60,447 nt of DNA, filler included, from an uncultured Myxococcia bacterium (GCA_964617105.1; 6 parts of 6 records of this genome joined end to end with filler, not necessarily neighbours in it), one strand, 5' to 3'; positions 5,898 through 60,447 are shown, counted from the whole stretch's first letter. Numbers and translations are program-made. Notes: a model not told the origin generated them from the sequence alone.

Positions 5898-6479
5898 ATG
5901 ACTGTGGAAGTTTCCGATTTGAAAATAGGGGAAAAAATCAGCCGATTTCGTCAAAGCGCCGGTATTAGTGTGGATGAACTGGCCGTTAAAATTAGCGTCA
6001 CCCCGGCGGTTATGCAGCAAATAGAAAGAGATGTGGTGCAACCAACCATCGCCGCTCTGTTGAAGATATCAAAATATTTCAAAATAGATATGAGCAACTT
6101 TTTTGAGGCGGAGAAACCCAAAAAAATTGAGGTGCTGAGAAAAGAGGAGCGCCGAAAAGTTAAGCGTGACCGGGGCACCAAAGATAATCCCCTTAGTTAT
6201 AGTTACGAAGCCCTGGCTTCACCTTCCAACAAGCATATGCTTCCCTACCTGGTGGAATTTGACGTGGGGGTGGAAGAGGAGGTGGAACCATTGAGCCACG
6301 AAGGAGAAGAATTTTTATATGTCCTGGAAGGAGAGTTGGACATTCATGTTGATAACGAAGTTATCCGTCTCCATCCTGGAGACAGTCTATATTTTGATAG
6401 TTCAATGCCTCACTCCCTCCAGGGAAGCGGTAAAATAAATCCCAGGGCAATTGCCGTGGTCTATCCAGAAAAGAAATAG
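5898..6479 (+). CDS. XRE-family HTH regulator with cupin domain
   Basis: N-terminal HTH (IGEKISRFR...IERD...PTI), C-terminal [12 protein letters not shown]...GDSLYFDS cupin. Confidence 0.9.
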
Positions 6480-6489
6480 GGAGATTGAG

Positions 6490-7038
6490 ATGATAGAGTT
6501 AAGATTTCATGGCCGGGGAGGGCAAGGGGCAGTGGTAGCCTCCAAGATTTTTGCCGAGGCACTTTTTTATGAAGATAAATTCGTTCAATCGTTTCCCGCT
6601 TTTGGGGTTGAACGGCGAGGTGCACCCGTTACCGCCTTTACCAGAATAGATGATAAACCCATCAGGTTGAGAACCAATATCTACCAACCTGATCATATCG
6701 TGGTTTTGGATCCAACCCTGATAGATACCACCGATGTAACCGCCGGCCTTAAGGAGGGCGGGATAGTGTTAATCAATATTGACCGGGAGCCCTCTACCTA
6801 TACCAGGTTATCGGGATTCAAGGTGGCAACTGTTGACGCCAACCTGATAGCCACCGAATACCGCCTGGGTTCTCCCGCCTATCCTATTGTCAATACCGCT
6901 ATTTTAGGGGCTCTGTCCAGGGTCACCGAATTGGTGGGAATAGAGTCGGTATGCAAAGCCATCAGTAAAAGTGTTCCCACGAAGCCGGAAGCCAACTCCG
7001 AGGCTGCCCGGAAGGCTTTTAACCAGGTTTTGTATTGA
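6490..7038 (+). CDS. porC: 2-oxoacid:acceptor oxidoreductase gamma subunit
   Basis: [28 protein letters not shown]. Confidence 0.9.
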
Positions 7039-7101
7039 TTTTCAGAATTTACATAAATGGCAACCTAGTATTAGCAAAGTATTAGCAAAATTGGGTGAAA
7101 A

Positions 7102-8910: not shown

Positions 8911-8914
8911 ATAA

Positions 8915-10058
8915 ATGAAAAAAGTTATTGTTGGCAACCATGCAGTTTCTTATGGGGTGCAACTGGCCAGAGCTCAGGTCTTAGCCGCCTATCCAATCAC
9001 TCCCCAGTCATCGGTGGTGGAGGAATTATCGGAGATATGTGCTGATGGCAAACTGGACGCCAGGTTTATCAAAGTTGAGTCGGAGCACTCCGCCATGGCC
9101 ACTATAATAGGAGCCTGCTCCACCGGTGTGCGGGCTTTTACCGCCACCAGTTCCCAGGGTTTGGCCCTGATGCACGAGTTACTTCACTGGGCTAGTGGCG
9201 CCCGCCTGCCTTTGGTCATGGCCAATGTCAATCGGGCTTTGGGACCGGGATGGAATATCTGGGCCGACCAACTGGATTCACTTTCACAGCGCGATACCGG
9301 GTGGATGCAAGTCTATTGCGAAGATAACCAGGAGGTGTTGGATGCCACCATTCAGGCCTTTAGGATTGCTGAACTTGTCAATTTACCTATGATGATAACC
9401 TTTGACGCTTTTTTTCTTTCCCATACCTCGGAAGTGGTGGATATTCCCGACCAGGAAGAGGTGGACAGATTTTTACCCAAGTATGACCCGGAGTTTTTTC
9501 TCAATACCAAAGATCCCCGCTCTTTTGGTGCTCTTACTTCGCCGGATCATTACATGGAGATGCGCTATAAAATCCAGTCCGGCATGGATAAGGCCCTAAA
9601 GGTGAGTAAAGAGGTCTTTCAAGAGTTTAACCAGATTTTTGGCCGCCAGTATGACCTGGTGGAAAAGTATAAAATGGATGATGCCCAGGTGGTTTTGGTT
9701 ACTGCTGGCACGGTTACATCCACTAGTAAAGAGGTGGTGGATGAGTTGCGCGACAAGGGGGAGAAAGTGGGCCTCCTGAAGATCAGGATGTTTAGACCAT
9801 TCCCGGCCGAAGAGATACTAGAGGCTTTAAAAGGGAGAAAGAAAGTCCTGGTTTTGGACCGCAATATGAGTCCTGGTTTGGGCGGTATTTTTGCCCAGGA
9901 GGTAAAGGCGGTGGTGGGCAGATACACTCCGGTACATGGTTTTGTAGCCGGTCTGGGTGGAAGGGATATCACTCCGGATGCTATCAAACAAGTGATAAGC
10001 AAAGGCAAAGAGTTAGAGGATCAGGACACTCAAATCAATTGGGTGGGACTGCACTCTT
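8915..10058 (+). CDS. porA: 2-oxoacid:acceptor oxidoreductase alpha subunit (stop codon lost at contig end)
   Basis: AAYPITPQ, VESEHSA, TATSSQGLALMHE, FRPFP, GLGGRD. Confidence 0.92.
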
Positions 10059-10158
10059 NNNNNNNNNNNNNNNNNNNNNNNNNNNNNNNNNNNNNNNNNN
10101 NNTTAATTAATTAANNNNNNNNNNNNNNNNNNNNNNNNNNNNNNNNNNNNNNNNNNNN
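10059..10158. other. Artificial contig linker (N-TTAATTAATTAA-N)
   Basis: 100-nt N spacer containing a six-frame stop 12-mer; repeated identically at four other places. Confidence 0.98.
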
Positions 10159-13806: not shown

Positions 13807-14633
13807 GCTGCCAATTCCGATCTGCGAAAGGATGAACAAAACGATGAAATTCTCCGGTTTGTTGATTTCTGGAAAGAACGGACAGGCCGCCTTCCAGAAG
13901 AACTCATTTTTGATTCAAAACTTACGACCTATGAAAATCTGAATAATCTCAACCAAATGAAAATTCAATTTATTACTCTGCGAAGACGTTCCAAAAAAAT
14001 GCTTCAAGCGATAAACCAAAAACCCGAATCTGCCTGGAGACGGATTCAACTTGAAGGTGTTTCAAGGATCTACCGGACCCCGAAAATTCTGGATGAAAAA
14101 ATAGCCCTCAAAGATTATTCAGGTCCTTTACGACAATTGACAATTAAAGATTTGGGGCACGAAGAACCGACCATTTTAATTACAAATCAACTTAAACGTT
14201 CCCCTCGCAAACTCATTACACGGTATGCCAAGAGAATGCTCATCGAAAATGGCATCGCCGATGGCATTGATTTTTTCCACATGGATTCTCTGTCCTCCGC
14301 AGTGGCTATGAAAGTAAACTGTGATCTTCAACTTACGCTCATGGCTAGCAACCTCTATAAGGTCTTTGGTGCTAAAATTGGTAACGGCTATACAACAGCC
14401 AAATCAAGACATAGTTTCAGAGATTTCATCGATGCATCGGCAACGATAAAAATAACGAAAAATAACATCATTGTTCGTTTTCAAAAACGGGCTCACAACC
14501 CTTTATTGCTGTCCGCCGGGTTTGAAGAAAGTGATGTAAAAATCCCCTGGCTCGGTGGCAATAAAAAATTGCAACTTATATTTGGCTAAATCCGCCATGG
14601 TGTTAACTTAATAAACTAACATGGGAATCCAGG
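13807..14633 (+). mobile_element. 3' half of a DDE transposase (IS1380-like) with a candidate right terminal repeat
   Basis: Frame open from 13807 (ANSDLRKDEQNDEILRF...LIFDSKLTTY) to stop 14589; YAKRMLIENGI motif; GGGAATCCAGG at 14623-14633 resembles IS1380-type CCT.GATTC termini. Confidence 0.65.
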
Positions 14634-19094: not shown

Positions 19095-19595
19095 TTATTC
19101 TCCTGCCCACATATGTGCGTCAGCCAAAATAGACCGGCGCAGCAGGGCTTTTATTGTTCTGTGGTCAATTGAATCGAAAAATTTGTGGATATCGTTTTTT
19201 AGAAAGCAGCGGTATTTCTGGCAAAAATATTGTGCTCTGGCCAGGGCGCGATGGGTCCCTTTTTCTTTGCGGCAGGCATAACTGTCATGGATGGAGAATT
19301 TCTCGAAAATCGGCTCCACAAGGTTGCACACGCTGTGGTGAACCACTCTGTCTCTAAAGTCGGCCGCCGCTATCAACCGGGTCTTTGGATCGTTCACGAT
19401 GAACATCCTGTACGGCTGCGGTCTGTAACTCCCCGCTAAAATTTCCCGTTGCAGTTGCAGGACATTAGGCTCAACTCGAAACAGGAAGGAGGTGGCCTGT
19501 TTTGTGCAGAGTTTTCCCTTTGCCGCCTTATAAGCGCATTTCACTAGTTGGTTGAAATCTACTGTTTTTTCAAAAAGATTTCCGTATCGCTTCAT
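19095..19595 (-). pseudogene. DGR reverse transcriptase, N-terminal 166 aa only
   Basis: MKRYGNLF, YRPQPYRMFIVNDPKTRLI..ADFRDRVVHH, SYACRKEKGTHRA, LKNDIHKFFDSIDH; stops before the GxPxG..SQ and YxDD motifs; ATG overlaps the avd stop (ATGA). Confidence 0.9.
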
Positions 19596-19936
19596 GGTTC
19601 TAATTGCTGTTGCTGCCATCCACCCACTTGTTTTCCCGCTTCGTCGAGCAGACGGTTAAGATGGTCATAACCCTTGTGATCCAGATATTTTCTCTCATGG
19701 CAAAGTCCCGAGAGGACCCGCAGTTTTTCGATGTTCAGGTTGACAGTTTTTAAAAGTGAATACTTGCCACCAGAATAACAGACTTCCACTATCTTTTCCA
19801 AAACATCCAGGGCCAGGTTGTCTAATCGGTTTGAAAAAGTAAAGCGCACCTTTTTGGGAAACTTTTCTGTTTTTTGCAGCAAATATTTTATTACTTTTAT
19901 CCAGCATATATAAAGAGGCAGTTGTTCATGGCTCAT
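19592..19936 (-). CDS. avd: DGR accessory variability determinant (Avd, four-helix bundle)
   Basis: 114 aa, basic; EKFPKKVRFTFSNRL, LNIEKLRVL..LC, EAGKQVGGW; directly upstream of the RT. Confidence 0.9.
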   Translation of the reverse strand: MSHEQLPLYICWIKVIKYLLQKTEKFPKKVRFTFSNRLDNLALDVLEKIVEVCYSGGKYSLLKTVNLNIEKLRVLSGLCHERKYLDHKGYDHLNRLLDEAGKQVGGWQQQQLEP

Positions 19937-20290: not shown

Positions 20291-21097
20291 TAGTGCTGAT
20301 ATAAATGTGATTGCGCTGATCGGAGAGCGGGGCCGTGAGGTGCTGGAGTTCGTGGAAAGAGATCTGGGGCCCGAGGGGATGGCCAGATCGGTGGTGGTGG
20401 TGGCTACCAGCGACAGTTCTCCGGTGGTAAGGATGAGAGGGGCTTTTTTAGCCACCTGTATGGCCGAATATTTTCGACTGCAGGGTAAAGATGTGCTGCT
20501 GATGATGGACTCCCTTACCCGTTTTGCTATGGCCCAGCGAGAGATAGGTCTCTCAATAGGTGAACCGCCAACCACCAAGGGCTATACCCCTTCGGTGTTT
20601 GCCTTGCTGCCTAAATTTTTGGAACGATGCGGTACCCTCAATCTTCAAAACGGCACTGTTGCCAGTATTACCGGTCTATATACTGTACTGGTTGACGCCG
20701 ATGATATGAATGAGCCAATTGCCGATGCTGCCCGCTCAATCCTGGATGGTCATATTGTACTTTCCAGAGACTTAGCCCATCATAACCATTACCCGGCTNN
20801 NNNNNNNNNNNNNNNNNNNNNNNNNNNNNNNNNNNNNNNNNNNNNNNNNNNNNNATGACCGTGGTGGCCGGAGAGGATCAAAAAAAATTGGCCGGCCTGA
20901 CCAGGGAAACTATGGCGAGTTATAGTCAAGCAGAAGATTTGATCAATGTGGGTGCCTACGTAAAGGGCAGTAATCCAAAAATTGACTTTTCTATTGAAAA
21001 AATAGATGCTATAAATCAATTTTTACGCCAGGGTATCTTTGAAAATGTTGGGATGGAACAATCTTTACAAATATTGGAACACATTTTTGCTGAATAG
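20291..21097 (+). CDS. fliI: Flagellar export ATPase, partial, with an internal sequencing gap at 20799-20854
   Basis: [66 protein letters not shown]. Confidence 0.88.
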
Positions 21098-21173: not shown

Positions 21174-21797
21174 ATGAATAGAGAGACTAATAATCGCTTT
21201 TTAAGGGACAGACTAATTCCCGGATGGATACCGGCAGTTTTGTTTTGCTGCTTTTTATCAACCAGCTTTTTATCCTTATCCGCTTTCGCTCAGATCACTA
21301 CCCAGGAAAATGATGAGAGGGAACCAGAAAGTATCTCCGATGTGCTCCGTTCACCCTGGGATGCCAATCTGTTCAATGCTATCGCCAAGGAGCGGGACCG
21401 GTTGAAACTAAAAGAAAAGGAGTTGCAGGAGAAGGAACAGCGGCTCGACCAATTAAAGCAGGAGATAGAAGTCCAGGTGGCCCAGTTGGAAAAATATCGA
21501 AAAATGATTGAAGACGAGCGCAAAGAGATTGTCAAACTCTACAAAGACCAGGAGCCTAAACGGCAGAAAAAGATCAAAATCCTGGTAAAGATGTATCAAA
21601 ATATGAAAGCAGAGGAGGCGGCCAAAGTACTCCCCTCCATGGACGTGGAACTGGTGGTGGATATTTTGTCCCGTCTAAAAGCCAAAAACTCCGGTAAAAT
21701 CATGGAAAAACTGGAAGCCAAACTAGCCGCATCTTTAAGCGAAAAAATCGCCAAAGTAAAAGAGATAAAAAAGATCAAGCAGAAATCGCCCTATTAG
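21174..21797 (+). CDS. MotE/YlxF-like flagellar protein (coiled coil plus MgtE-N-like helical domain)
   Basis: Signal/TM segment, coiled coil, LVKMYQNMKAEEAAKVL...ILSRLKAKNSGKIM; downstream of fliI. Confidence 0.7.
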   Translation: MNRETNNRFLRDRLIPGWIPAVLFCCFLSTSFLSLSAFAQITTQENDEREPESISDVLRSPWDANLFNAIAKERDRLKLKEKELQEKEQRLDQLKQEIEVQVAQLEKYRKMIEDERKEIVKLYKDQEPKRQKKIKILVKMYQNMKAEEAAKVLPSMDVELVVDILSRLKAKNSGKIMEKLEAKLAASLSEKIAKVKEIKKIKQKSPY

Positions 21798-21818: not shown

Positions 21819-24800
21819 TCACATTGCGAAACCACCTAGGTCAATACAATAACCACCGGCACATTCAAATCCGGGTTGGCATTCAGAACTAGAGGCACAG
21901 CCAGTATAACTGCCGGTTATACATTGACCACCACCTTGACCACCGCTATTTATGCAAATCTGGCCGGTGGAGCAATCGGCATTACTGGTGCAACCGGATG
22001 AGGTTCCAGTGACACAATCGCCATCCTGGCAGACCTGGCCAGTGGAGCAATCACTATCATCCATGCAAGAGCCCCCTTCATCTATACATTCGCCGCCCTG
22101 GCAGATTTGACCTTCACCGCAATCATCATCTGTATTACATTCTGGCGTCGGCCCCTCGCTCATCATACACTCTCCTTCTGAGCAAATTTGACCTTCACCG
22201 CAATCTGAATCACTGGTGCATCCGGCAGTTACCGTATCAAGGGCGCAAAGTCCTGTATTCTCATTACATATCTCACCTTCTTCGCAGTCAGCGTTACTAG
22301 CACAGGGTTCGATACAGACAGAATTGCCGCCAGCGGGCAGATGACAGATTGTGGTATCAGTACAAGTGTATTCCGGCATACCACCAGATATCAGGCACGA
22401 CTCCCCGGTTTGTTGGTGACCTTCAAGAATAGGTTGCCAACAAACACCCCAGTCATGAATAGGGTATCCTGAACAGGTCTGGTTATTTTTACAAGAATAG
22501 TTTGCGGTTCTGGAACAGATTTTAGCACATTTACCAGAGGCGCATATATAGCCATCCTTGCAGCGTTGATTGGCTGGCAGCAATGCTCCTCCCTGTTCAG
22601 TTGAACAGGTTGCATTCTGACCTAAAAGAGCATCGGTTGGAAATGCACAAAAGCCCTCATTTTGAGAACCGCCAAATAGACAGATTTTATTATTTAAACA
22701 ACCACTGTAAGGAAATGGGGCTTTGCCAGGATGGCATAACTCCCCACAAAGACCCCAGGTAGATACCGTTTCATTAGACAAATATGGATGGATGCAGGAA
22801 AACCCTTGGCCGCATTGATTGCCGGTTTGAGCCGGGTCACAGAGAGAGTGGCATTCACCCAAATAGCAGAAAGAGCCGGCAGCACATGCCTTGGCATCAT
22901 TGGTCGGATCCGGACAAGCCTGCCCTGGTAAGATAGCCAAAGAATCTTCGACTGAAGGAGCATAAACGCACATATTGGCACTACTCATCTTACCACTGGT
23001 GGGGTAACAGGTCCCGTTAGAGCCACAACTGCCTGGGTTCTTTAAATCACAAATTCTTGAGCATACTCCATATGACGAAGTTGGTTGCCCAGATGCATCC
23101 ACCGCCCAGTTGCAAGTGTTATACTCGGGATCACTACAGCCTCCGGTCTGTCCGGCCTGACAATATTTAGTGCAAATTCCATTAGAGCAAAACAAGCCCG
23201 GCTGGCAATCACCATCTTTGCCCAAATTATTTGCATCACAGGCCTGGCCAATCGATTTCAGTTCCGATAATGGTTTACTCAAATCGTTACAAAGAGAAAC
23301 ATTATTATAACTGGTGGGATAGCAGGTGGCGTGGCTGGCTCCCTTGTCAGCACAATCTTGATTAAAAAGATCACACTGCGCCTGGTTGATACAAATGCCG
23401 TAGTTGGGAGTTTGCAAATTATCGGGCCAGCAGGTCTGGTTAGTGGCACAGGAGTTTAGATTAGTTTTATTACAGGTTTTAAAGCATTGGTGCTCACCTG
23501 CTTTTGCATTAGGCAGACAAATTGATCCAGCCTGGCAATCGGAACTAACCACACTTTGAGCGCCCCACAAGTCTAAACTCTGGGCAACACCGCACTTTTC
23601 GCCTGGCAGTTTACTGCCCAAAGCATCCAGGCATTTTCCTCCAAAAGTGGTTGGCCAACAGGTTTGGTCAGCCTGGCAATTATCGCTGGCAATCTCCTCT
23701 GTATTGGGATCACAAACCATAATTTGTTCATTGCTGCTTTTTACCAGTCTAAAGCCACCCTTTACCGGGCCATAGCCATAATTATCCTGGGCGTCTGGGT
23801 TTACCGGGTGACGAAAAGCAAAGCGGCACTGATGGGACCCACCGATAACCGAACCCCCTCTCAAGATTCGTTCTGTTCCGGTGGTGGGACCAAGGGGATC
23901 GGTAAGTTGCAAATCATTATATGGTCCGTATAGATCCCATACCCACTCGGAAACATTGCCGATCATATCGTATAAGAGGAGATTATTGGCCTTTTTGCCG
24001 CCAACTTTTTGTAGTGAACTGTAGCCATCGCACCAGGCAACTTGGGAAATATTATTGTAGTCTAACTCTGCGGCTTCTCCCGCCCGGGCAGCATATTCCC
24101 ACTCCGCTTCGGTGGGAAGACGATAACCCTGGCAATCTAGACCTTTAAAAGTTACCTGAGCACATTTCATCCCCTCTCCCGGCTTACCAATACAGTCAGA
24201 TAAAGTGTAGCACTCCTCCAACCCATAATATTTAGACTTTATGTTGGCAAAGGCCAAAGCCTCGTAAAAAGTTACCTTAACCGGGCAATTTTTTTCGATA
24301 CACAATTCGCTTTCGTCTCCTTCAAGGTAGTAACCTGGACCATTTTCACCGTCATCATCTTCTTCTTCACATTCTACACACGGTGGCCCATCGACGTTAC
24401 CGTCCGAGTGGCCATCTCCTTCGCTACCCTGGTTACCTTCCTCACTGTAGTGCCCAAAAGCCCAACTCCAAAGTCTATTGGTTACTTCATATCTGGAGGT
24501 AAAAAAACTGCGGGTGATTAAAACTTGATGTTGCGGTTTTTCAATCTCTGGTTGAGAGACAGATTCGAAAGATGAACCCATATTGAACATTCCGGCAGGA
24601 ATTTTGGCATAAGTAGAGCCCCAGCCGGTTAAAGCCGGTGCATAACCAATATAGTGATTGGTTTTAATATCACCAACTTGCAGTTCGGTTCCCCAACAGT
24701 AGAGCCCTTTTTCCGGCATACTGATCCCGCAGGTAAAATTGCTGCCTGCCGAGATGGACTGCCAGGTTAATTCACCAATCTTCTGGGGTTGAGGCCGGTG

Positions 24801-27800
24801 TTCCTGGGTGTTATCACCTAACTGTCCGGCGCCATTTTCGCCCCAGCACCAGAGAGAGTTATCCTCCTGGATGCCGCAACTATGAAATTCACCCAAACTG
24901 ATAGCCAACCATTTTTTATCATCTAACAATAGGGTGGGTATATCTTTATCAACTTCAACACCAAAACCAATTTGCCCATAACCGCCACTGCCCCAGCAGA
25001 AAAGTTGGCCAGATTCTTTAATAGCGCAACTGTGATTATCTCCCACATCCAAATCTTTATAGGGGCCAGCCCCCACTTTTTTGGGAACTTTAGTCTCGAT
25101 TGTGGCTGCCAAGCCTAGCGCCCCAGCACTGCTGTAGCCCCAGCACCAGAGCGAGCCATCATTTTGGATGCCGCAGGTGTAATATGAGCCGGGAGCCACT
25201 TTTTTCCATTTGGCGGTGCCAACCTGGGCCGGCTTATCCCGAAGACGATAGTCATTCAGGCCCAATTGCCCCATATCGTTATTACCCCAGCACCAAAGAG
25301 TCTGATCCGCTTTAATGGCGCAAGTGATGCCACCGCCTGCCTCTACCGACAGCCAGCCGGTTTGTGCCAGAGGAGTAAAGATGCTCTGGTCACTCACCTG
25401 CCCAACTCCCAATTGTCCATAACTGTTGTTACCAGTACAATAGAGTGAACCATCATTGTTTAGGATACAGGAGTGGTAAAAGCCGGCGCCAATATTTATC
25501 GCCGGCTCTTTGGCAGTAGTGCTAAGCCAATAATACCTATCGGTGTTGCCCATCCCCAGTTGTCCATAGTCATTTCCGCCCATACACCACCATTTACCAT
25601 CCATTGAATTGAGGGCACAAACATGGTTATGTCCGGCAGAAACAGATTTCCAGGATGGACCGACACATTCTTGCCATTTTTTGTTTTCATAAAATTGCAA
25701 ATTTCGTGGTTCATCAGGACAGGCGCGAACCGAAGTTTTACAGTGTCCATCTTGTTGAATAAATGGGTAAAAAGAATTACTTTCCAGGCAAGAAACCAAT
25801 TGGCACTCAGACCATTGGTCATTACTCCAGGATTGCTTCCCAACACCATAGATAATGTGGCATTCCCTGCTATTACTTACACAATGGTTATTTTCGACAT
25901 GATAATCAGCAATACAGGTTTCTATTTCACATTCGCTCCAGGCATTAGCCTGGCTATCCCAAGTTTTTTGCCCGGTCCCAAACTCCATATCACAACTTTG
26001 CTCGTTGTCTTCACAGCGTTTGCTAACCTGCCCAATGTGTTGAGTTTCTGAGCAGAGTTGACATTTGCTCCAGGAAGAGGCTGCATCATCCCAGGTCTGA
26101 AAACCTTTATTCTTGTAGCAGATGCGGACAGATGGCTGGCAACGGCCAAATTCCAGATGAAATCCGCGGTTACAGAATTGAACTTTGCACTGGCCATAAT
26201 GCTCTTTTCCACTGTCCCATAAAGCGATTCCCTGGCCATTTTCAATAGAGCAAAAATTAGTATCGCTAACACAAGATTGTTGCACTCCACTCTGGTTGGC
26301 TTCCAGGTGAAATCCCTGGTTGCACCGTTCGGTAATACAGTCGGACCAGGTTGATGTTTGGCTGTCCCAAATTCGTTTGCCCACACCATTTGCCACCTGA
26401 CAAATGGTGTGATTGTTTACACAACTCATTTGAGATTGTGTGACCTCCACATGCTGATCATCATCACAGGTAATACAGGGATCCCAGTCATTTTCATTCC
26501 AGGTTTGATAGCCCTGGCCAGAATGGCAGAGTTTAAGGTCAGATTGGCATTGATCACTGGAAACATGAAAATATTGGTCACAACTCTCTATCTGGCAGGG
26601 ACCATAGGCTTCGTTCTTATCACTCCAAACTTTTTTGCCTTTACCATTAATGATTGGGCAAGATTGGATATTGCTAACACAACCTTTGTCCTCTTCGTGA
26701 TAACCAGGGTCACAAATATTTTCACAGTCATCACCGATTTTGTTGCCATTTTTATCTTCCTGATTAGCATTGGCTATGGTGGGACAATTATCCAAAGAGA
26801 AACGAATTCCGTCTCCATCTTCATCAATATCAGCAGGCACTCCAAAAAACACCGGACTTGGAGCAGATAGATTATTGACCTGGTCAAAGGCTCTGGCGGT
26901 CAGGCGGGTGAGTTTTCCAGGTTTAATCCAGGGGGCTTGCAAAAACAGTTCAAACACCTGAACACCGGAGGGATCTGTAGATAGAACGCCTGAAGACAAA
27001 AGAGTTTTTACTCTGTCCTCAAAAGGTGATTCACTGCCGCCCTGGAATAGAAATCCCGCAATATCAGAAGTGCCGCCACTAAAAAACAGGGCCACTTTGA
27101 GACCCCGTTCACCTGGCGTTACTCGGGTTTTTGGATCCCAAATCATCTTGGGTGCGGTTTGATCCAAGGTTATGGTCAAGAAAAAAGGTGCAGAAAAGCG
27201 GCCGGAACGATCTATCACCCGGACAAAAAATAGTTTGCTGCCGTCGGTCCCGGGGCTTGGAAGGTTATAGGCAAATTGGGAATCATCAATCCAGGGTTGA
27301 GAGGTTGAATCTACAAAAGACATATCCTTGGCTATTTGATAAGAGGCAATGCCGCTGCCAATCTTATCGTTGGCCTTGATCTCAATCATAACCTTTGGGC
27401 TGGTGGTGCTGGTGGTAGAGGGGGAGCCATCAGCCAGTTTGCCGTGAACTAAAGCCTGAACAATTACCGGATCTTTTAAATCAACAACAGTTTTTACCCC
27501 CACCGATTCTATCAGTTTATCTGTGCCATCAAAAAAATTTATGGTAAGCGTTTTTAGCCCTTCTGTATTGGAGAGGGTAACCTCTTTACGGGTTACGGCT
27601 GCTAATTGCAGCGGCGTATTGTCCAGCAAATCGCCCCGAATAGTTAGTTTTTGGGCGCCAGGAGGCAAATTGATAAGCAAGGTAACCTGGTTGGACTGCA
27701 CATAACGCCCCTCTTCGATCACCACTTTGGCAATAGGCACATAAGTTGGGTCAAATTCAATTTTAGCAGAGGTTACAGCATCGTTGCCGGCAAAATCAAT

Positions 27801-30290
27801 GGCTTTTAAAAACAACTGCTTTACCCCTTTTTTATCGGGTAAAGTAACAGTGTGCGACTGGGCCATCTTGATCTCTATTGGATCTTTAAAAGTGTTATCA
27901 CTATCAACTAAGAGTTTATCTATACCTATATTATCCTCTGCCGTGGCAAAAACCGAAACCTCTCGTTGATTGGTTTTGATAGCCCCCCCATTGATACGCA
28001 AACTCAGCGAAGAAGGTTTCTCCCGGTCCAGAACAATGCTGCACTCCGCACCTTTCTCTATTTGGTTGCCAGCCTTATCTTTAAAAGATACAAAGATACT
28101 CTTTTTTCCATCTTGAGGGCTAAGGCGAAAATCGGTCTCCGGTTTTGTAGGATCAAAACTTTGCCAGGGCAATGAATCCATTGGCAGAGTCTCGCCAATA
28201 CGCACCAGGCTCAAATCTGCATCACCAACAACTTTCACTTTTACCGCCGAATCTCTGGTATATTTTACCCCTTTGTTCACAACACAAGAGCCTTTCGAAA
28301 TTTTAGCATCCCACTCGATACTGGCGCTAAAAATATCGGTAATATTTCCCGAAACACTCTTTAATCTGGCATAAATAGTCTTTTTACCCTGAATTCCCTG
28401 GAGCATATATTTGAAATTGGTCTTAAAGGTTTGAAAGTTATAAGGAGGTTTTTGGAGGTCATCCTGGTTTTCAGAGATAGTCATTAGATGGGCGCCAAAA
28501 TTATCGCCCACAAAAATACTTAGATTGACAATACCGCGCTCATCCCGGCAAAAAATGTTGCTACCATCGATTAGCATGGTGGGTTTGGCATCTGGAGTGC
28601 CCAAAAAAAGTGACAAGTCAGATACTGCCGACATATTACCGGCCTGATCGCGATAGCGAACAAAGAGATTATAGACACCCTGTTTATCGGAAGATAATTT
28701 ATAGTCTACTTTTAAGGGATTTTGGCCGTATTTATTGCTTTGTAAATTATTCTTAAAGTTAAAATCTTCGGCAATATCGTAAAAATCTGCCCCAGAAGCC
28801 CGCAAAAGCAGATAGAGTTGGCTTTTGGCAACAATATTTTTAGCAAAGGGTTTACCCTGGCTATCTACCAATTCTACCGGCTTAATCACATCCGGCTGGG
28901 GAGAAGTTTGATCCAATTTCAGGTTTAGTTTTGCCCCATGTAAATTGCCGGCCCGATCATAAATGCAAACCGTAAGTTCTTTGTCCCCATCCACTTTTGG
29001 CAAGATATGGCGGGTTTTACCACTCTCTGGAAGAGCGTTTGATTTTAAAGAATCACATGACAGGTCCCCATCTCCCACCGCAAAAAAATCTGCCTTAAGC
29101 GCGCCAAGTTCAATCTCAATATCCCTGGTTCTCACCTCTATTTTGCCTCCAACCACTTTAGGAAATCCCGGTTTAAAGGTAGGCGGAGTAATATCGTATT
29201 CTATTTCCAGACTCGCTATCTCCGACATATTGCCAGCGAGATCAGATACTTTGACATAGATGTTTTTTTTATCTTCACTAATTTTTTTGCCAGATTTATC
29301 TTTGTTTAAATACCAGGTCTGATTGAGATCAAAATCGCGGCCAATGGCATTGGTAAACTTCTCATCTTCACTAATAAAAATCTGGTTTAGCATATTCAGG
29401 TTATCTTCAGCCTCTATCTCCAGGTTCACCCTCCCCTGTTTATCGTTTATAGCTTCCCGGTTATTCCTCTCGCCGAGGCTAGTAATTTGAGGTTTAATAG
29501 TGTCTAAAATAATCGAGGCCACAAATATTTTACTTTTTTGACAGGCAAAGCCTCTATAGAGGACATATACCAATTTTTTTCCGTCGCCCTCCGACTTTAT
29601 TTCATAATCAACATCAGCCTGATAGGGGATCCATTCATCATCATTGATTTGGTCTTCCTTTTCAAATTGCTGCTCCCGAATTACCACATCTTTTACCGGA
29701 TTACCAAACGAGTGGAGCAAAAGCACTACCTTCCGGGTAGAGGTAACCTCTATTCTTTTTAAGCTCTGGTCCTCATCCCGCCGGGCAAACTCCACCACAC
29801 CGGTAACTTTTTTCATTTTGAGATCGGTAAGGGTCACCGGAGCACCCTCCTGGATATCAACCTGTTGTTTGTTGCTCTTATTAGGAGCAAAAGAGTTTTT
29901 AACCAACTCCACCTCATATTTTCCGGTTGGCAAATTGGGCATGGAAAAGGAGCCATCGGGATTGTTGGTGGTGGAAAACTGTTTTTGACTTTCAGTTTTG
30001 CTCTCCGGTGTGCAGGAGGAGGAGTCAGATACCAGGGCTGCAGTTAAAGAATTGCTGGCAGCATTCACCGTTCTAATAAAAGTTATACGCACACCGCTAT
30101 TATCTATCTCAGGAAATCCATCTTCATCTTCCAGCAGGACAAAACCTTTTAAAGAACCGGTTTTATAGCGGAGACTTTTTTTACCAATATCGAGATCTTC
30201 ACCTATTCCCAGCGGCAATTTTTCTCTAATGGCAATAAAGTTTTTCCTCTCGATACTCAAAAGATAATCTCCAGGGGTTATACCGCTAAT
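21819..30290 (-). CDS. Giant (>=2823 aa) multidomain surface protein: Ig/cadherin-like repeats, TSP3-like motif, Cys-rich repeats, RCC1/BLIP-II repeats, FGE-sulfatase (CLec) domain, Cys-rich tail
   Basis: Frame open to the contig edge; repeated D.AGN...LD.T.P; DNCPTIAN..Q.D..G..IGD.C; LWCWG.N..GQLG repeats; RLPTEAEWEYAAR...LYDMIGNVSEWVWD; C..D.DC..GQ.C repeats. Confidence 0.9.
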   Translation of the reverse strand: MSGITPGDYLLSIERKNFIAIREKLPLGIGEDLDIGKKSLRYKTGSLKGFVLLEDEDGFPEIDNSGVRITFIRTVNAASNSLTAALVSDSSSCTPESKTESQKQFSTTNNPDGSFSMPNLPTGKYEVELVKNSFAPNKSNKQQVDIQEGAPVTLTDLKMKKVTGVVEFARRDEDQSLKRIEVTSTRKVVLLLHSFGNPVKDVVIREQQFEKEDQINDDEWIPYQADVDYEIKSEGDGKKLVYVLYRGFACQKSKIFVASIILDTIKPQITSLGERNNREAINDKQGRVNLEIEAEDNLNMLNQIFISEDEKFTNAIGRDFDLNQTWYLNKDKSGKKISEDKKNIYVKVSDLAGNMSEIASLEIEYDITPPTFKPGFPKVVGGKIEVRTRDIEIELGALKADFFAVGDGDLSCDSLKSNALPESGKTRHILPKVDGDKELTVCIYDRAGNLHGAKLNLKLDQTSPQPDVIKPVELVDSQGKPFAKNIVAKSQLYLLLRASGADFYDIAEDFNFKNNLQSNKYGQNPLKVDYKLSSDKQGVYNLFVRYRDQAGNMSAVSDLSLFLGTPDAKPTMLIDGSNIFCRDERGIVNLSIFVGDNFGAHLMTISENQDDLQKPPYNFQTFKTNFKYMLQGIQGKKTIYARLKSVSGNITDIFSASIEWDAKISKGSCVVNKGVKYTRDSAVKVKVVGDADLSLVRIGETLPMDSLPWQSFDPTKPETDFRLSPQDGKKSIFVSFKDKAGNQIEKGAECSIVLDREKPSSLSLRINGGAIKTNQREVSVFATAEDNIGIDKLLVDSDNTFKDPIEIKMAQSHTVTLPDKKGVKQLFLKAIDFAGNDAVTSAKIEFDPTYVPIAKVVIEEGRYVQSNQVTLLINLPPGAQKLTIRGDLLDNTPLQLAAVTRKEVTLSNTEGLKTLTINFFDGTDKLIESVGVKTVVDLKDPVIVQALVHGKLADGSPSTTSTTSPKVMIEIKANDKIGSGIASYQIAKDMSFVDSTSQPWIDDSQFAYNLPSPGTDGSKLFFVRVIDRSGRFSAPFFLTITLDQTAPKMIWDPKTRVTPGERGLKVALFFSGGTSDIAGFLFQGGSESPFEDRVKTLLSSGVLSTDPSGVQVFELFLQAPWIKPGKLTRLTARAFDQVNNLSAPSPVFFGVPADIDEDGDGIRFSLDNCPTIANANQEDKNGNKIGDDCENICDPGYHEEDKGCVSNIQSCPIINGKGKKVWSDKNEAYGPCQIESCDQYFHVSSDQCQSDLKLCHSGQGYQTWNENDWDPCITCDDDQHVEVTQSQMSCVNNHTICQVANGVGKRIWDSQTSTWSDCITERCNQGFHLEANQSGVQQSCVSDTNFCSIENGQGIALWDSGKEHYGQCKVQFCNRGFHLEFGRCQPSVRICYKNKGFQTWDDAASSWSKCQLCSETQHIGQVSKRCEDNEQSCDMEFGTGQKTWDSQANAWSECEIETCIADYHVENNHCVSNSRECHIIYGVGKQSWSNDQWSECQLVSCLESNSFYPFIQQDGHCKTSVRACPDEPRNLQFYENKKWQECVGPSWKSVSAGHNHVCALNSMDGKWWCMGGNDYGQLGMGNTDRYYWLSTTAKEPAINIGAGFYHSCILNNDGSLYCTGNNSYGQLGVGQVSDQSIFTPLAQTGWLSVEAGGGITCAIKADQTLWCWGNNDMGQLGLNDYRLRDKPAQVGTAKWKKVAPGSYYTCGIQNDGSLWCWGYSSAGALGLAATIETKVPKKVGAGPYKDLDVGDNHSCAIKESGQLFCWGSGGYGQIGFGVEVDKDIPTLLLDDKKWLAISLGEFHSCGIQEDNSLWCWGENGAGQLGDNTQEHRPQPQKIGELTWQSISAGSNFTCGISMPEKGLYCWGTELQVGDIKTNHYIGYAPALTGWGSTYAKIPAGMFNMGSSFESVSQPEIEKPQHQVLITRSFFTSRYEVTNRLWSWAFGHYSEEGNQGSEGDGHSDGNVDGPPCVECEEEDDDGENGPGYYLEGDESELCIEKNCPVKVTFYEALAFANIKSKYYGLEECYTLSDCIGKPGEGMKCAQVTFKGLDCQGYRLPTEAEWEYAARAGEAAELDYNNISQVAWCDGYSSLQKVGGKKANNLLLYDMIGNVSEWVWDLYGPYNDLQLTDPLGPTTGTERILRGGSVIGGSHQCRFAFRHPVNPDAQDNYGYGPVKGGFRLVKSSNEQIMVCDPNTEEIASDNCQADQTCWPTTFGGKCLDALGSKLPGEKCGVAQSLDLWGAQSVVSSDCQAGSICLPNAKAGEHQCFKTCNKTNLNSCATNQTCWPDNLQTPNYGICINQAQCDLFNQDCADKGASHATCYPTSYNNVSLCNDLSKPLSELKSIGQACDANNLGKDGDCQPGLFCSNGICTKYCQAGQTGGCSDPEYNTCNWAVDASGQPTSSYGVCSRICDLKNPGSCGSNGTCYPTSGKMSSANMCVYAPSVEDSLAILPGQACPDPTNDAKACAAGSFCYLGECHSLCDPAQTGNQCGQGFSCIHPYLSNETVSTWGLCGELCHPGKAPFPYSGCLNNKICLFGGSQNEGFCAFPTDALLGQNATCSTEQGGALLPANQRCKDGYICASGKCAKICSRTANYSCKNNQTCSGYPIHDWGVCWQPILEGHQQTGESCLISGGMPEYTCTDTTICHLPAGGNSVCIEPCASNADCEEGEICNENTGLCALDTVTAGCTSDSDCGEGQICSEGECMMSEGPTPECNTDDDCGEGQICQGGECIDEGGSCMDDSDCSTGQVCQDGDCVTGTSSGCTSNADCSTGQICINSGGQGGGQCITGSYTGCASSSECQPGFECAGGYCIDLGGFAM

Positions 30291-56803: not shown

Positions 56804-56943
56804 ATTAATAATTATCTTGACTTACCCAGAATAGATATGTTATTCTTTGAGATCTACAGTAACGTGTAACCTGTTGATATCTTACGGCAAATTGTTGCTG
56901 CCGTTTGATGGTATTACCAAGTAACCTTAAAAAGAGGTATACC

Positions 56944-59900
56944 ATGAAAAAATTATTCAGTCTGAAATTGTTATGTGTTCTCGTCCTTTTGGCGGCATTT
57001 ATGACCAATTGCGCCGGAGGCAGCGGTGGCTGCATAAACAAGAAACTCTCCTACAAAATCACCCCGACTCCCAATACTACCCGCATGGGAGTCACCAAAG
57101 ACGGGCTGACCATCGTCTTTAAACATCTTAAAGAGTTGATCATCAACAGCCTGGAGTCCAAAGAAAATGCAGACGGTTTTATCGAAATTCCGGTGGACAG
57201 CATCTTGATTGAAGATAAATTTACCACTCTTGGTCAGGAGGCAAAATACAAAGTTACCCTGGAAGATCCTGTTTTTCTGCTGAAGTGGGAGGATGTAAAA
57301 GTTGATATCAGCAAACAGTTCACCGGTAACCAGGTAAACACCGGCGCCCGGGTGATGATGTCCATCGAAAACGCCAAAATTGCTCTTAGCCAAGATATGC
57401 ATCTTAAAGGGGATATTTCAATCAATGCCTGTACCCTTTTTCCCTTTTTAAAACCTCTGTTGAAAGATTGCGATTTAAGTCTTATTGATGTGGCTTGCCC
57501 CATCTCAAACGGCCTTTCGGTTCGTGAAGGAGGCAAAGAAGAGTTTATCGCCGGGTATCTCAGCGCCACCGCTAATATTTTGGTTAATATAGACCGGACT
57601 ATCGACCCCAATACCGGCTTGCCCAAGGGTACCTTTAAAGTTCGTCCTATCATCAGTTCTCTGGATATCAAAGACTTGAAATTCAAGGTTGAATCCAGTG
57701 GAGAAAAAGTCTGCCAAAATAAAGCCTGTGACGATAACGAATGGGTGCTCAATTTGGCCGGGAAAGACGAGTGCTGGGAGTGTGAGCAACTGTGCCCCTA
57801 CCTGAGCAAGGGTTCTGATTTGGTTGTGCAGGTGGGTAAATATTTAAAAGGGGCCAATAAGTATCTTCTTGGAGCCGCCCTGTCGGGTGCAATTCGTAAC
57901 GCTTTTTCCGGCTTAAACGGCAAATCTCTGGTGTTGCAAGACGAGGGAAACATTAATGAAATGGCCCGCAAGGATAACCGACTCCCCTTCAAGGGAAGCA
58001 AAATGGGATTTTTGTATACACCCAATGAGATAGAGGTCAATTGTGGGACTAGATTTTGTATAGCCCCAGATATCTTGAAAACTCTGGAGTTGACCTTTGA
58101 TGGCGGTATGGATTCCAGGCCGGTTACCAGGTGCGCTCCAATACCTAAAGAATATATTGCCGACCCAGAACAATATGTTAAAAACACTTTTAAAACCACG
58201 GCGCCGCCAGATTTGACCGGAGTGGACCCCCAGGGTAATCCCTATCATGCAGCTGCCAGTTTTGCCCGGGCATTTTTCGAAAGAGGCCTCTTTTCACTGT
58301 ACATAGGAGGTAACTTATGTGTTAGTATTTACTCCGAGGATATTGAGCAGGCTTCTGATATAAAAATCAACTCCCAGGCTATTACTCTGCTGATACCGGA
58401 GTTAAAAGAGTTGCTGCCTGATAATGCTCGAATCCTAATGAGAATGAATCCATCCAAAATGCCTAGTTTTAGAATGACTCAGACGGTTAAAACTGTGGGG
58501 AATTATCAAGTTTATGTCCCCACTATGCAAATTTCGTTTGAAAAAATGGGGCTCTCTTTATACGCCTATATATTTGACCGCTACACCAGGCTGTTCCATT
58601 TTGAGTTCGACTTGAACATAGAGGCGCAAATGTCTATTCTGCCAAACCGGGAGATGGAATTCAATGTTCATGTTGTGGATGTTAAAAACATCAAGCAAAC
58701 CTACCACGAATTTGTCAAAAACCTGGATGCCACCAACCTGATTAAAAATACCGTGGATATGACTTTGGGTATGTTTTTGAAAGACAGCCTGACTTTCCCG
58801 GTGGAGGTGGAGAAATCCTTACAAAATTATCTGGGAGTCCCGGTTAGTGTTAAAATCAGCAACCTGGGTCTGGAAGGCAAGGGACAAGTCAAAGACTATG
58901 TCACTCTCTATCTAAACTTTGAAGAGTGTCAGGGAGGCAAATGCCAAAACATGATTATGGCAGCGGCGGAAACAAAGGCCAGGTTAGAAAAGGAAGTAGA
59001 GATGGTCTACGATAAAAATGGTTACCTGGTGCCGGATGGAAAAATAGTGATTCATACTGAATCTCAAGAGGAAAATCAGGAGTATCAATATCGGGTGGAT
59101 GGACTCTACTGGTCTAGTTTTCAGCAGGGAGGACAAATAGAAGTTGAATCATCTATGCTGAAGTTGCCTGGCCGCCACCTGGTAGAGGTCAGATCCAGGT
59201 ATGCCGGACATTATAATTCTCTGGATCAAACGCCGGTCAGAATTACGGTAATTGTCGATCCCTTTGCCCCCAGCCTGGAAGTGTTTCCGGTGCCAGAGGG
59301 GATAAGATTATTGGGCAAAGATAACCTCTTCAACCAATCCGAATTAACTTACTCCTACAACCTGTTTGACGCTGACGGAATTAAGGTTCAAAGTAGTGAT
59401 TTCAACTCTCAGGATCTTATTTCCCAGGCACAATTGAAAGAGGTCGATTGGCTGGAGGCCAGAGTTATGGATCCCAAGGGAAATATAAGTGGAGTAGTTA
59501 CTTATAAACTTGCTGCCCAGAACCAGTTACCAGTTGCCATTGAGGAGATCGACCCCGCCAGCAAGGTTCAGGAACCGGAAATTAATTCGGTCTATGTTGA
59601 TGCGAATAATTTGCAGAATTTTAACCTGACCGGTCAGGGAGATAACCGTGCTTCCTCATCCGGTGGATGCCACCATCTGCAATTGTCAGATAAAATACCA
59701 TATAGTTCCATCATATTTTTAGGATTGGCTCTGCTGATTCCCATTTTAATACCTCTTTTCTCTCGGATTAGAGCCAGGAGTTGCCTGTTTGCCACCTTAT
59801 TTTTAGCCATGACTTTGAGCGGTTGTGATTGCGATGAAACGCCTCTTAAAACCTACACCCAGTTCGGTGAATGTCCTTCTAATAAGATTTTAATCCGGGG

Positions 59901-60447
59901 TGAATGTGAAAATAAGTTCTGTGATCCGGAGGATCCTCTCTCTTGCTGCCCAGGACGTTTTTGCAGCAGTGAAGGCAAATGTGTATTGGAAACCTACACC
60001 TGCGAGAATGATTCTCAATGCCCCAGCAAGGGACAAACCTGCCAGGAGTTTGAAGAGCGTAACATGTGTCTGTATAAATCCTGTGCCAGCGCCGACCAAT
60101 GCCAGCGCGGCCAATTTTGTTTCTCTCACAGCTGTATCAGCGATATTCCCTGCAACGGTAAATGTCCCAATTCTAATGTTTGTGTAGCAGCCACCAACAA
60201 ATGCTATCCTGTGCAAGGTTACGGTTGTGACCGGGAATGTGGCAGCGGCGAAATCCTGGTGTTGGCTGACCCGGAAAATATGACCGGCCCTACTTGCGGC
60301 AGCCTGGTTTGTCGTTGCGAGAAGACTAAAACTCAACAGGAAGGAAGAGTCGGCCCTCACAGCGCCATGGCCATTGGTAAAAATGCCATCTACGTGAGCG
60401 CCTATGATGACCACTTTGGCGATTTGGCCCTCCTCTTTTTTGACCGC
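56944..60447 (+). CDS. Large (>=1168 aa) lipoprotein with an internal MYXO-CTERM-like anchor and a second lipoprotein signal; runs off the window end
   Basis: Translated by hand with no stop from ATG 56944 (SD AAGAGG) to 60447; MKK...AFMTN-C23; SSSGGC909-TM-RIRAR; LFATLFLAMTLSG-C961; Cys-rich region afterwards; absent from the ORF track. Confidence 0.9.
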   Translation, partial: MKKLFSLKLLCVLVLLAAFMTNCAGGSGGCINKKLSYKITPTPNTTRMGVTKDGLTIVFKHLKELIINSLESKENADGFIEIPVDSILIEDKFTTLGQEAKYKVTLEDPVFLLKWEDVKVDISKQFTGNQVNTGARVMMSIENAKIALSQDMHLKGDISINACTLFPFLKPLLKDCDLSLIDVACPISNGLSVREGGKEEFIAGYLSATANILVNIDRTIDPNTGLPKGTFKVRPIISSLDIKDLKFKVESSGEKVCQNKACDDNEWVLNLAGKDECWECEQLCPYLSKGSDLVVQVGKYLKGANKYLLGAALSGAIRNAFSGLNGKSLVLQDEGNINEMARKDNRLPFKGSKMGFLYTPNEIEVNCGTRFCIAPDILKTLELTFDGGMDSRPVTRCAPIPKEYIADPEQYVKNTFKTTAPPDLTGVDPQGNPYHAAASFARAFFERGLFSLYIGGNLCVSIYSEDIEQASDIKINSQAITLLIPELKELLPDNARILMRMNPSKMPSFRMTQTVKTVGNYQVYVPTMQISFEKMGLSLYAYIFDRYTRLFHFEFDLNIEAQMSILPNREMEFNVHVVDVKNIKQTYHEFVKNLDATNLIKNTVDMTLGMFLKDSLTFPVEVEKSLQNYLGVPVSVKISNLGLEGKGQVKDYVTLYLNFEECQGGKCQNMIMAAAETKARLEKEVEMVYDKNGYLVPDGKIVIHTESQEENQEYQYRVDGLYWSSFQQGGQIEVESSMLKLPGRHLVEVRSRYAGHYNSLDQTPVRITVIVDPFAPSLEVFPVPEGIRLLGKDNLFNQSELTYSYNLFDADGIKVQSSDFNSQDLISQAQLKEVDWLEARVMDPKGNISGVVTYKLAAQNQLPVAIEEIDPASKVQEPEINSVYVDANNLQNFNLTGQGDNRASSSGGCHHLQLSDKIPYSSIIFLGLALLIPILIPLFSRIRARSCLFATLFLAMTLSGCDCDETPLKTYTQFGECPSNKILIRGECENKFCDPEDPLSCCPGRFCSSEGKCVLETYTCENDSQCPSKGQTCQEFEERNMCLYKSCASADQCQRGQFCFSHSCISDIPCNGKCPNSNVCVAATNKCYPVQGYGCDRECGSGEILVLADPENMTGPTCGSLVCRCEKTKTQQEGRVGPHSAMAIGKNAIYVSAYDDHFGDLALLFFDR

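Follow-up and report, generated by a model that had tools for sequence, protein, structure and literature searches.

A conserved joint of two sorting signals in a candidate two-lipoprotein precursor from an uncultured Myxococcia bacterium

Two kinds of sorting signal are of concern here. In bacterial lipoproteins, the lipobox follows the consensus [LVI][ASTVI][GAS]C. The MYXO-CTERM signal is cleaved in a Cys-dependent way by MrtX, a protease of the CPBP family; lipidation of its Cys is believed to come first, a step for which the authors favour Lgt, and the type II secretion system then carries the protein to the surface, according to the passages of Guo, Haft and Wall (2025, PMC11980579) on which we draw. 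In the same passages internal MYXO-CTERM motifs are rare, and MXAN_5598, which has one, is a probable gene fusion whose N-terminal part is proposed to be still processed; these passages mention neither a lipoprotein signal after the internal motif nor family-wide conservation. Could the two signals stand back to back inside one protein? Here we analysed a stretch of DNA of 60,447 nucleotides, called the window below, from an uncultured Myxococcia bacterium (GCA_964617105.1; six parts joined with filler). A single open reading frame on its plus strand (56944..60447) encodes a MYXO-CTERM-like signal that runs directly into a second lipoprotein signal. We give a probability of about 0.6 to the reading that this gene is a natural precursor of two lipoproteins, that is, a polyprotein, cut by LspA and a myxosortase-type protease. 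The architecture given in a preliminary description of the locus is strongly backed by comparative data at the sequence level, most of the computational checks proposed there turned out in its favour, and the processing itself is put forward as a hypothesis.

Translation from the ATG at 56944 to 60447 gives 1168 residues with zero stops, which bears out the earlier claim of an uninterrupted frame of at least 1168 codons. The frame is still open at the window end, and an in-frame TTG is also present upstream, at 56905. The protein begins with a lipoprotein-type signal, MKKLFSLKLLCVLVLLAAFMTN-C23 (56944..57012), which ends M-T-N-C23 with an unusual Asn at position -1 of the lipobox. Module A follows. 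Its first part, about residues 42-663 (57067..58932), is modelled as a double-lobed TULIP-type fold like that of BPI, LBP and CETP; its second part, about residues 673-858 (58960..59517), is modelled as FN3/Ig-like beta-sandwich domains; and a probable disordered linker of low confidence, about residues 861-906 (59524..59661), leads to the joint. The joint opens with GGC909 (residues 907-909, 59662-59670) and a 13-residue spacer HHLQLSDKIPYSS, which together (59662..59709) form the first part of the MYXO-CTERM-like signal. Next comes helix 1, IIFLGLALLIPILIPLF, of 17 residues (923-939; 59710..59760), and then the basic loop SRIRAR (residues 940-945; 59761..59778), by which the three-part layout of a MYXO-CTERM signal is complete. 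This element is not at the extreme C-terminus: at least 223 residues come after it in the window, and about 550-830 residues in full-length fused relatives. What comes after it is helix 2, SCLFATLFLAMTLSG-C961 (59779..59826), an internal lipoprotein signal made up of the h-region SCLFATLFLAMT and the lipobox L-S-G-C961. The first 207 residues of module B are then present in the window, namely a Cys-rich stalk with 23 Cys between residues 963 and 1125 (59827..60318) and the first strands of a beta-propeller (GPHSAMAIG...YVSAYDDHFGDL; 60319..60447), which align to residues 200-245 of the stand-alone homologue P0038 and are cut by the window end. The elements named in the preliminary description, that is both signals, GGC909, the helix, SRIRAR and C961, were all located in the sequence as it had placed them.

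Hydropathy agrees with two membrane-spanning stretches at the joint. With a 19-residue window and values above 1.4, the N-terminal signal and residues 914-944 stand out, and with a 15-residue window at 1.9 or more, residues 947-961 are additionally found. The second signal has a 12-residue h-region and 15 uncharged residues ahead of Cys961. Judged by its features, the segment of residues 940-961 has the basic n-region (RIRAR), the h-region and the lipobox of a lipoprotein signal, at a position that is not N-terminal, the signal beginning only at residue 940. We read helix 1 as a stop-transfer helix going from outside to inside. The SRIRAR loop would then be cytoplasmic, and it may serve both signals at once, closing the first and forming the n-region of the next.

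Is this layout found in other proteins? A word-index homologue search with residues 860-1168 against proteins of 642-2044 amino acids (aa) gave nothing, and a metagenome scan with the window protein gave 47 pattern matches with zero confirmed. The family was found with HMMER: among 1.84 billion representative proteins, 750 relatives reach E <= 1e-3, of which 349 have E <= 1e-10 and 31 have E <= 1e-30. For the 750 representatives, no Pfam or NCBIfam family exists. Class counts and alignments were drawn from the best 150 of the 750 relatives together with the window, using profiles for the A and B halves. Three classes were obtained: A-only proteins (76 of the best 150; about 720-1000 aa if complete), B-only proteins (24 of the best 150; about 570-735 aa), and proteins in which A and B are fused (51 including the window, hence 50 of the best 150; 1230-1776 aa if complete, the long-A relatives having 1350-1776 aa). 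P0041 was moved by hand to the A-only class, its B match being a short internal stretch. Ten representatives were looked up, 7 of them fusions, whose sources are ENA, JGI/IMG, NCBI and Logan and whose contigs measure up to 110 kb. These results suggest a large, so far unnamed family of BPI/LBP-like proteins on bacterial surfaces, with a lectin-like lipoprotein as a frequent partner. The closest relative of the window protein is P0002 (775 aa), with 34% identity over residues 10-770 and a place on the tree as sister to the window's module A. P0002 stops at the close of the BPI-like part, without the Ig-like domains, the tail and module B, and is either truncated or genuinely shorter; its N-terminal lipobox has Asn at -1, as in the window protein.

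The joint is conserved in the fused class. In all 46 proteins of at least 1150 aa (window included), the succession of Cys, spacer, helix, basic cluster, hydrophobic stretch and lipobox Cys is recognized by eye. The Cys is mostly in a G/S-G-C context, the spacer has 2-16 residues, the basic cluster consists of Arg, but of Lys in A+T-rich members, and the lipobox-like x-x-[GAS]-C has acidic or small residues behind it. A strict joint pattern finds 42 of the 46 long proteins and 3 of the 5 fused fragments, being absent from fragments P0089 and P0108. The order of GGC, transmembrane helix, Arg cluster, h-region and lipobox, which the preliminary description expected in homologues, is thus a feature of the family. 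When the window protein was aligned with 29 fused relatives of about 20% identity to it, 9 columns were invariant, C23, C909 and C961 among them, and R941 and R943 were kept in at least 90% of the 30 proteins. Another alignment, in which 20 fused proteins of a single clade were compared, again has both junction Cys invariant; loss of these two Cys in homologues had been named as fatal to the idea. Around the internal lipobox, 26 of 42 fused proteins have L, F or V at position -3, and 39 of them have G or A at position -1, where the pattern allowed only G, A, S and N.

What do the signals look like when the two halves are separate genes? A Cys-helix-basic tail ends 65 of the 76 A-only proteins; the other 11 end earlier and may be truncated gene calls. 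A simple pattern, a hydrophobic stretch followed by [GASN]C, was matched at the N-terminus by 43 of the 51 fused proteins and by 60 of the 76 A-only ones. Because A-only relatives carry the N-terminal lipobox as well as the C-terminal tail, module A appears to be typically equipped for anchoring at both ends, and the suggestion that it could be lipid-anchored at both ends agrees with predicted signals that are the norm in this family. On the B side, BLASTP aligns 957-TLSGCDCDE of the window protein with 22-TFGGCDCEE of P0038 (654 aa, stand-alone B), at 33% identity over 226 residues and E 4e-36, and C961 falls exactly on the lipobox Cys26 of P0038. The Cys columns of the stalk are invariant in the B alignments. 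The separate genes foreseen earlier therefore do exist, with the sorting signal C-terminal in A-only and the lipobox N-terminal in B-only proteins.

These comparisons bear on another possibility, that the product stays uncut, as a single large envelope protein whose two domains lie in the periplasm and whose two-helix hairpin holds it in the inner membrane. If so, the gene would simply encode a large hairpin-anchored envelope protein. The possibility fits a weak match of the joint fragments to TIGR02226, a double-transmembrane domain found at N-termini (14.3 bits, the cut-off being 23; E 0.037), a match that shows only the two-helix look. An uncut hairpin, however, would need neither two invariant Cys nor a lipobox-like context, and it is at odds with the B-only Cys that aligns with C961 and with A-only relatives that finish at the Arg cluster. 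We consider it quite unlikely.

Could the joint be an artefact of the data? Logan contigs from 4 runs (2 studies of marine or seawater metagenomes) each span 59607-59965 without a differing letter or a gap; the depth at the joint is only 3-6, and one run is possibly the window's own source. The contigs of the 4 runs agree across 58900-60447, and they contain no stop or frameshift at 59760-59800, the kind of interruption that would have turned the locus into two ordinary genes. A merging of two adjacent genes by a sequencing or assembly error at 59760-59800 has nothing in its favour but the low depth. It would have to be set against the identity of 4 runs from 2 studies and against 50 other fused proteins from independent sources (ENA, JGI/IMG, NCBI, Logan) with the same joint. 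Nor do the stand-alone B genes have an A module beside them. In 36 loci with such genes (found with the B-only alignment, and hence biased to stand-alone B genes), all in metagenome-assembled genomes and nearly all labelled Myxococcota, Myxococcales or Deltaproteobacteria, the number with a module A open reading frame (ORF) in flanks of up to 10 kb is 0, with 1 weak match to the Ig-like part only. A and B are distant from each other in 5 genomes, for example 1.1 Mb apart on one contig. An error of this kind is thus barely credible. A loose pattern of the whole joint matched 42 of the 46 long family members against 5 of 1796 control ORFs (six-frame ORFs of at least 150 aa in unrelated Myxococcota DNA, 596 kb in all); not one of these 5 makes a convincing hairpin, so the joint is more than chance. 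As for the end of the window, the contigs of two runs (X1, X2) stop at 60442, five bases short of it, and the X3 contig continues; the window ends where assemblies break repeatedly, within the propeller of module B. No RNA dataset is listed among the datasets carrying the region.

The preliminary description supposed that module A was possibly BPI/LBP-like with Ig-like domains, and the structure models agree with it. For window residues 24-905, AlphaFold2 with 59 relatives gave a mean predicted local distance difference test score (pLDDT) of 84.5 and a predicted template modelling score (pTM) of 0.80. In a Foldseek search against the PDB, the first ~640 residues matched CETP (2obd, E 1e-15), BPI (1bp1, E 1.5e-14, template modelling (TM) score by target 0.64) and LBP (4m4d, E 2.3e-14), and the bacterial P47/OrfX proteins of the same fold class came next. 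The matches to TULIP folds range from E 1e-15 to 1e-13 with TM (target) 0.41-0.64, and at fold level the model would belong to this class, with CETP, BPI and LBP at E 1e-15 to 4e-13. The C-terminal part of the model is all-beta (model residues 656-832) and was matched by Foldseek to pairs of FN3/Ig-like domains and to tissue factor. Model residues 838-867 and 870-882 have pLDDT <50; these are the linker, the last ~45 residues before GGC909. Pfam gave zero matches in the window protein, BPI-type families included. Module A thus has the predicted two-lobed fold in common with BPI/LBP/CETP and P47/OrfX at about 12% sequence identity; it differs from BPI/LBP/CETP in being bacterial, in its added FN3/Ig-like domains and in its putative lipid-anchor signals at both ends. 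Lipid binding by module A may be expected from such a model.

Module B was modelled on the stand-alone homologue P0038 with 47 relatives, as the window has its first 207 residues only. The model (pLDDT 90.6, pTM 0.86) has a Cys-rich stalk packed on a beta-propeller, which starts from about residue 214. By Foldseek the propeller of P0038 is close to the Photorhabdus PLL/PHL and Chromobacterium CV39L lectins (E ~1e-11, TM (target) ~0.7), with which the propeller fold is common at about 12% identity; the added Cys-rich stalk and the lipid anchor signal set module B apart from these lectins. The fused protein P0010 has a weak NCBIfam match to beta_propeller_lectin. Module B may therefore bind sugars, as far as the model can tell.

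Is there any order in the distribution of fused and split forms? On a FastTree tree of the B module with 66 rows (46 fused, 20 B-only), at least 5 changes between the fused and split states are needed, and well-supported branches force 4 of these; the window's B is placed among B-only proteins, with a row only 32% filled. On the A-module tree of 107 rows, which leaves out 20 fragments, there are 13 changes, 9 of them forced, and a recount with 54 A-only rows of verified tail against 45 fused ones gives 12. Such interleaving of the aligned sequences argues that each module has the same job in either state, and if the job is the same, release from the hairpin would be required. It is easy to explain with a precursor cut at both signals and hard to explain if B is tied to an inner-membrane hairpin. 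For the uncut protein discussed above, switches this frequent are hard to reconcile with different final locations.

We therefore favour the two-lipoprotein precursor, for which the following route may be drawn. Sec would export module A until helix 1 halts the transfer, with the Arg loop remaining in the cytoplasm; helix 2 would restart the transfer, and module B would be exported in turn. Lgt would lipidate Cys961 and LspA would cut ahead of it, so that B is freed as an ordinary lipoprotein. Cys909 would also be lipidated, and a myxosortase-type CPBP protease would cut after it to free A, which would be lipid-anchored at both ends for surface display. A hairpin peptide of about 51 residues (910-960) would be left in the inner membrane and discarded. 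The sequence, its conservation and the split forms entering this scheme are direct observations and the folds come from models; what we infer from them is the topology, cleavage and lipidation at both sites, where the products finally reside, and any cooperation of A and B, with glycolipids as one conceivable target. In G008, a genome with a verified fusion, there is a MrtX-like CPBP gene with 101.7 bits, under the NF040593 cut-off of 180.

Might module B instead be made by internal translation initiation just ahead of the second signal? By eye, an AGGAG is found at 59776-59780 inside the Arg-cluster codons, which would suit such a start. In the window, however, the stretch from helix 1 to the h-region lacks an in-frame ATG, the sole Met (M956) lying within the h-region, and a Met near the basic cluster is present in only 8 of 42 fused proteins and is thus not a conserved feature, although GTG and TTG starts are invisible in protein sequences. 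Internal initiation would also leave the open frame in every fusion unexplained, and we judge it very unlikely.

Several points weigh against the two-lipoprotein precursor. The MYXO-CTERM models TIGR03901 and TIGR03382 have no match to the window protein or to joint fragments at E up to 10, and 9 of the 17 fused proteins scanned are without any MYXO-CTERM match. True 'lipo-invert' proteins, the members of NF058595 described below, have no Cys before helix 1, therefore a hairpin of this kind can persist as a plain anchor. A myxosortase may also not accept a tail that continues into another helix. Fusions seem rare, with 1 verified (G008:C50, 1528 aa, full joint) among the matches listed from 401 Myxococcota genomes. 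The window itself, with 44% G+C and remnants of flagellar genes, is unlike typical Myxococcota. Finally, the trees were made with FastTree only and are unrooted, and gains and losses of the fusion look alike on them.

Concerning the survey of 401 genomes, which scored 2 candidates per genome, a match to the window protein was found in 158. G003:C16, G105:C20 and G163:C51 (L097, L096 and L098) were tried as fusions and rejected, as A-only genes with a long stop-free stretch upstream. In high-G+C Myxococcota genomes, the stop-free frame around an A-only gene exceeds the gene itself by 300-600 codons; therefore open-frame length alone overstates fusions. A comparison of synteny between the window and four homologue loci found no conserved neighbours, only two weak unrelated matches.

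How MYXO-CTERM-like is the internal element, then? For the NCBIfam scan, 23 proteins were taken from the 76 of the A-only class and 17 from the 51 fused ones, with cut-offs of 20 bits for TIGR03901 and 15.85 bits for TIGR03382. One or the other model reached its cut-off in 5 of 23 A-only proteins, at the terminal copy, and in 3 of 17 fused proteins, at the internal copy (P0090, residues 829-856 of 1573; P0133, 818-848 of 1411; P0010, 703-728 of 1308). At E <= 1 the matches are 11 of 23 and 8 of 17. As the rates are similar at both levels, the internal copies are as MYXO-CTERM-like as the terminal ones, and the copy in the window is one of the divergent ones. Of the sorting signal proposed earlier, the layout stands, and some homologues pass the cut-off at the aligned position; what does not stand is a model match for the window's own element, which, if the models alone decide, does not count as a MYXO-CTERM domain.

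The other model of interest is NF058595, 'lipo-invert', which stands for a putative C-terminal anchoring domain. In the window protein it matched only the N-terminal signal (14.5 bits against a cut-off of 37), and at the joint of 7 of 17 fused proteins it gave 11-18 bits (at most 17.7), below the same cut-off. True members over the cut-off occur in 6 of 151 Myxococcota genomes, and their tails consist of a helix, RRRR, an h-region, a lipobox Cys, GGSGG and about 45 residues to the stop. Because these true members carry it, the helix-Arg-lipobox hairpin is a recurring device in Myxococcota. Four of them (L076, L077, L078 and L080, in the Myxococcota genomes G094, G074, G060 and G034) have a ~45-residue beta-rich tail, and L081 and L092 have a sub-cut-off lipo-invert-like tail behind an FN3-like region. 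In G113 a 2325-aa ORF (L084:6483-13457, minus strand) with SpvB, TcdB-middle, FG-GAP, RHS-repeat and PT-HINT domains has a match to the helix-basic loop-lipobox pattern at residues 1760-1801, 524 residues from its end, maybe by chance.

A further possibility is that LspA is the only enzyme to cut. B would be freed, and A would remain at the inner membrane, fixed there by its N-terminal lipid together with the hairpin of helix 1, Arg loop and helix 2, in the manner proposed for the lipo-invert tail; Cys909 would then have another role or be inherited baggage. This agrees with the existence of helix-RRRR-lipobox hairpins without a preceding Cys, with the weak NF058595 matches at 7 of 17 fused joints, and with the failure of the MYXO-CTERM models on the window's element. 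It does not agree with a Cys909 that is invariant across fused proteins of about 20% identity, nor with internal copies that pass the MYXO-CTERM cut-offs (3 of 17) at the same rate as terminal A-only ones, and the interleaving of fused and A-only proteins on the tree suggests the same final location for both. A single cut by LspA is in our opinion unlikely.

With two cuts, as we favour, a broader scenario may be tentatively put forward, although we hold the odds to be against it: the back-to-back, mirror-image lipidation signals sharing one Arg loop, the MYXO-CTERM from outside to inside and the lipoprotein signal from inside to outside, may be a genuine polyprotein joint in and around Myxococcota, served by two membrane proteases; the two products, a BPI-like lipid binder with a lipid anchor at either end and a lectin-like lipoprotein, would act jointly on glycolipids such as the lipopolysaccharide (LPS) of neighbouring or prey cells. 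If this is true, one lipid transferase could serve both Cys residues, and the hairpin would be a portable module by which genes of secreted proteins fuse and split freely. The BPI/LBP-like family is suggestive for contact-dependent handling of lipid or LPS in predatory and social bacteria.

Besides the candidate precursor gene, the window is chromosomal DNA (ribosomal proteins, DnaB, Pth) that is matched in marine metagenomes. Genes for the gamma, delta-fused NAD(P)-binding and alpha subunits of a pyruvate/2-oxoacid:ferredoxin oxidoreductase lie at 6451-10114 (+) and are a hint of an anaerobic or microaerobic lifestyle of this marine organism. A disrupted-looking flagellar region is found at 13957-14589 (+), 19095-19619 (-), 20307-20858 (+) and 21174-21797 (+). 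It contains a 183-aa FliI fragment matching only ~167-326 of FliI models, and nearby are fragments of a group II intron reverse transcriptase and an IS1380 transposase and a weak match to an FlbB-like collar protein. At 21819-30260 (-), a 2813-aa ORF has RCC1 repeats, FGE-sulfatase, Big_13/CarboxypepD_reg-like and TSP3 repeat domains together with Cys-rich DUF7107/Dickkopf-like modules, and looks like a giant secreted or surface protein.

Has such a joint been described before? In the searched literature, outside which lie most subscription journals and supplements, an internal lipobox, or an internal signal peptide with LspA, was not found, a bacterial polyprotein with a lipobox gave nothing relevant by title or start of abstract, and no paper uses the term 'lipo-invert'. 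The preprint of Haft (10.1101/2023.06.07.544157) has no mention of internal copies, fusion, lipobox, lipoprotein signal or polyprotein. The earlier statement that no such arrangement had been described needs to be narrowed: an internal MYXO-CTERM exists in MXAN_5598, as the passages of PMC11980579 tell, and the hairpin exists as the NCBIfam 'lipo-invert', and what was not seen is a second full lipoprotein directly after it. Thus both signals and an internal MYXO-CTERM are known, and a conserved joint linking two complete lipoproteins is not described in that literature. If the two-lipoprotein precursor is true, it would be, within that literature, the first bacterial polyprotein resolved by membrane sorting enzymes. 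Each of the signals has so far been studied at a protein end, and the conserved precursor places both back to back. The fusions are therefore ready substrates for the myxosortase questions raised in those passages of PMC11980579: must the tag be terminal, which enzyme lipidates the Cys, and is it Lgt, with an inverted topology?

How does the joint compare with the known systems? The signature Cys, the transmembrane helix and the Arg-rich cytoplasmic stretch are common to it and to the MYXO-CTERM signal processed by MrtX, and the window's spacing of Cys, 13 residues, helix and SRIRAR resembles the TraA tail in the part of PMC11980579 considered here. The MYXO-CTERM signal is normally a terminal one; here it is internal and runs directly into another signal. 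MXAN_5598 also has it in mid-protein and is likewise proposed as a gene fusion; it combines an adhesin, an outer-membrane barrel and an OmpA domain in a single gene, as far as the same passages (PMC11980579) go, while here a whole family has split and fused forms. With the 'lipo-invert' proteins the hairpin is common, and the present family differs by the sorting Cys before helix 1 and by a whole second protein of about 600 residues after the lipobox. From the bacterial lipoprotein signal recognized by Lgt and LspA come the n-region, h-region and lipobox, which here stand behind another membrane helix. In viral envelope polyproteins, internal signal sequences are cut by the host signal peptidase. 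A hairpin whose second helix is the signal for the next protein is common to them and to the precursor proposed here; this is an analogy only, as the viral case involves a eukaryotic host, signal peptidase I and no lipidation, unlike the reading with Lgt and LspA that we favour for the present family.

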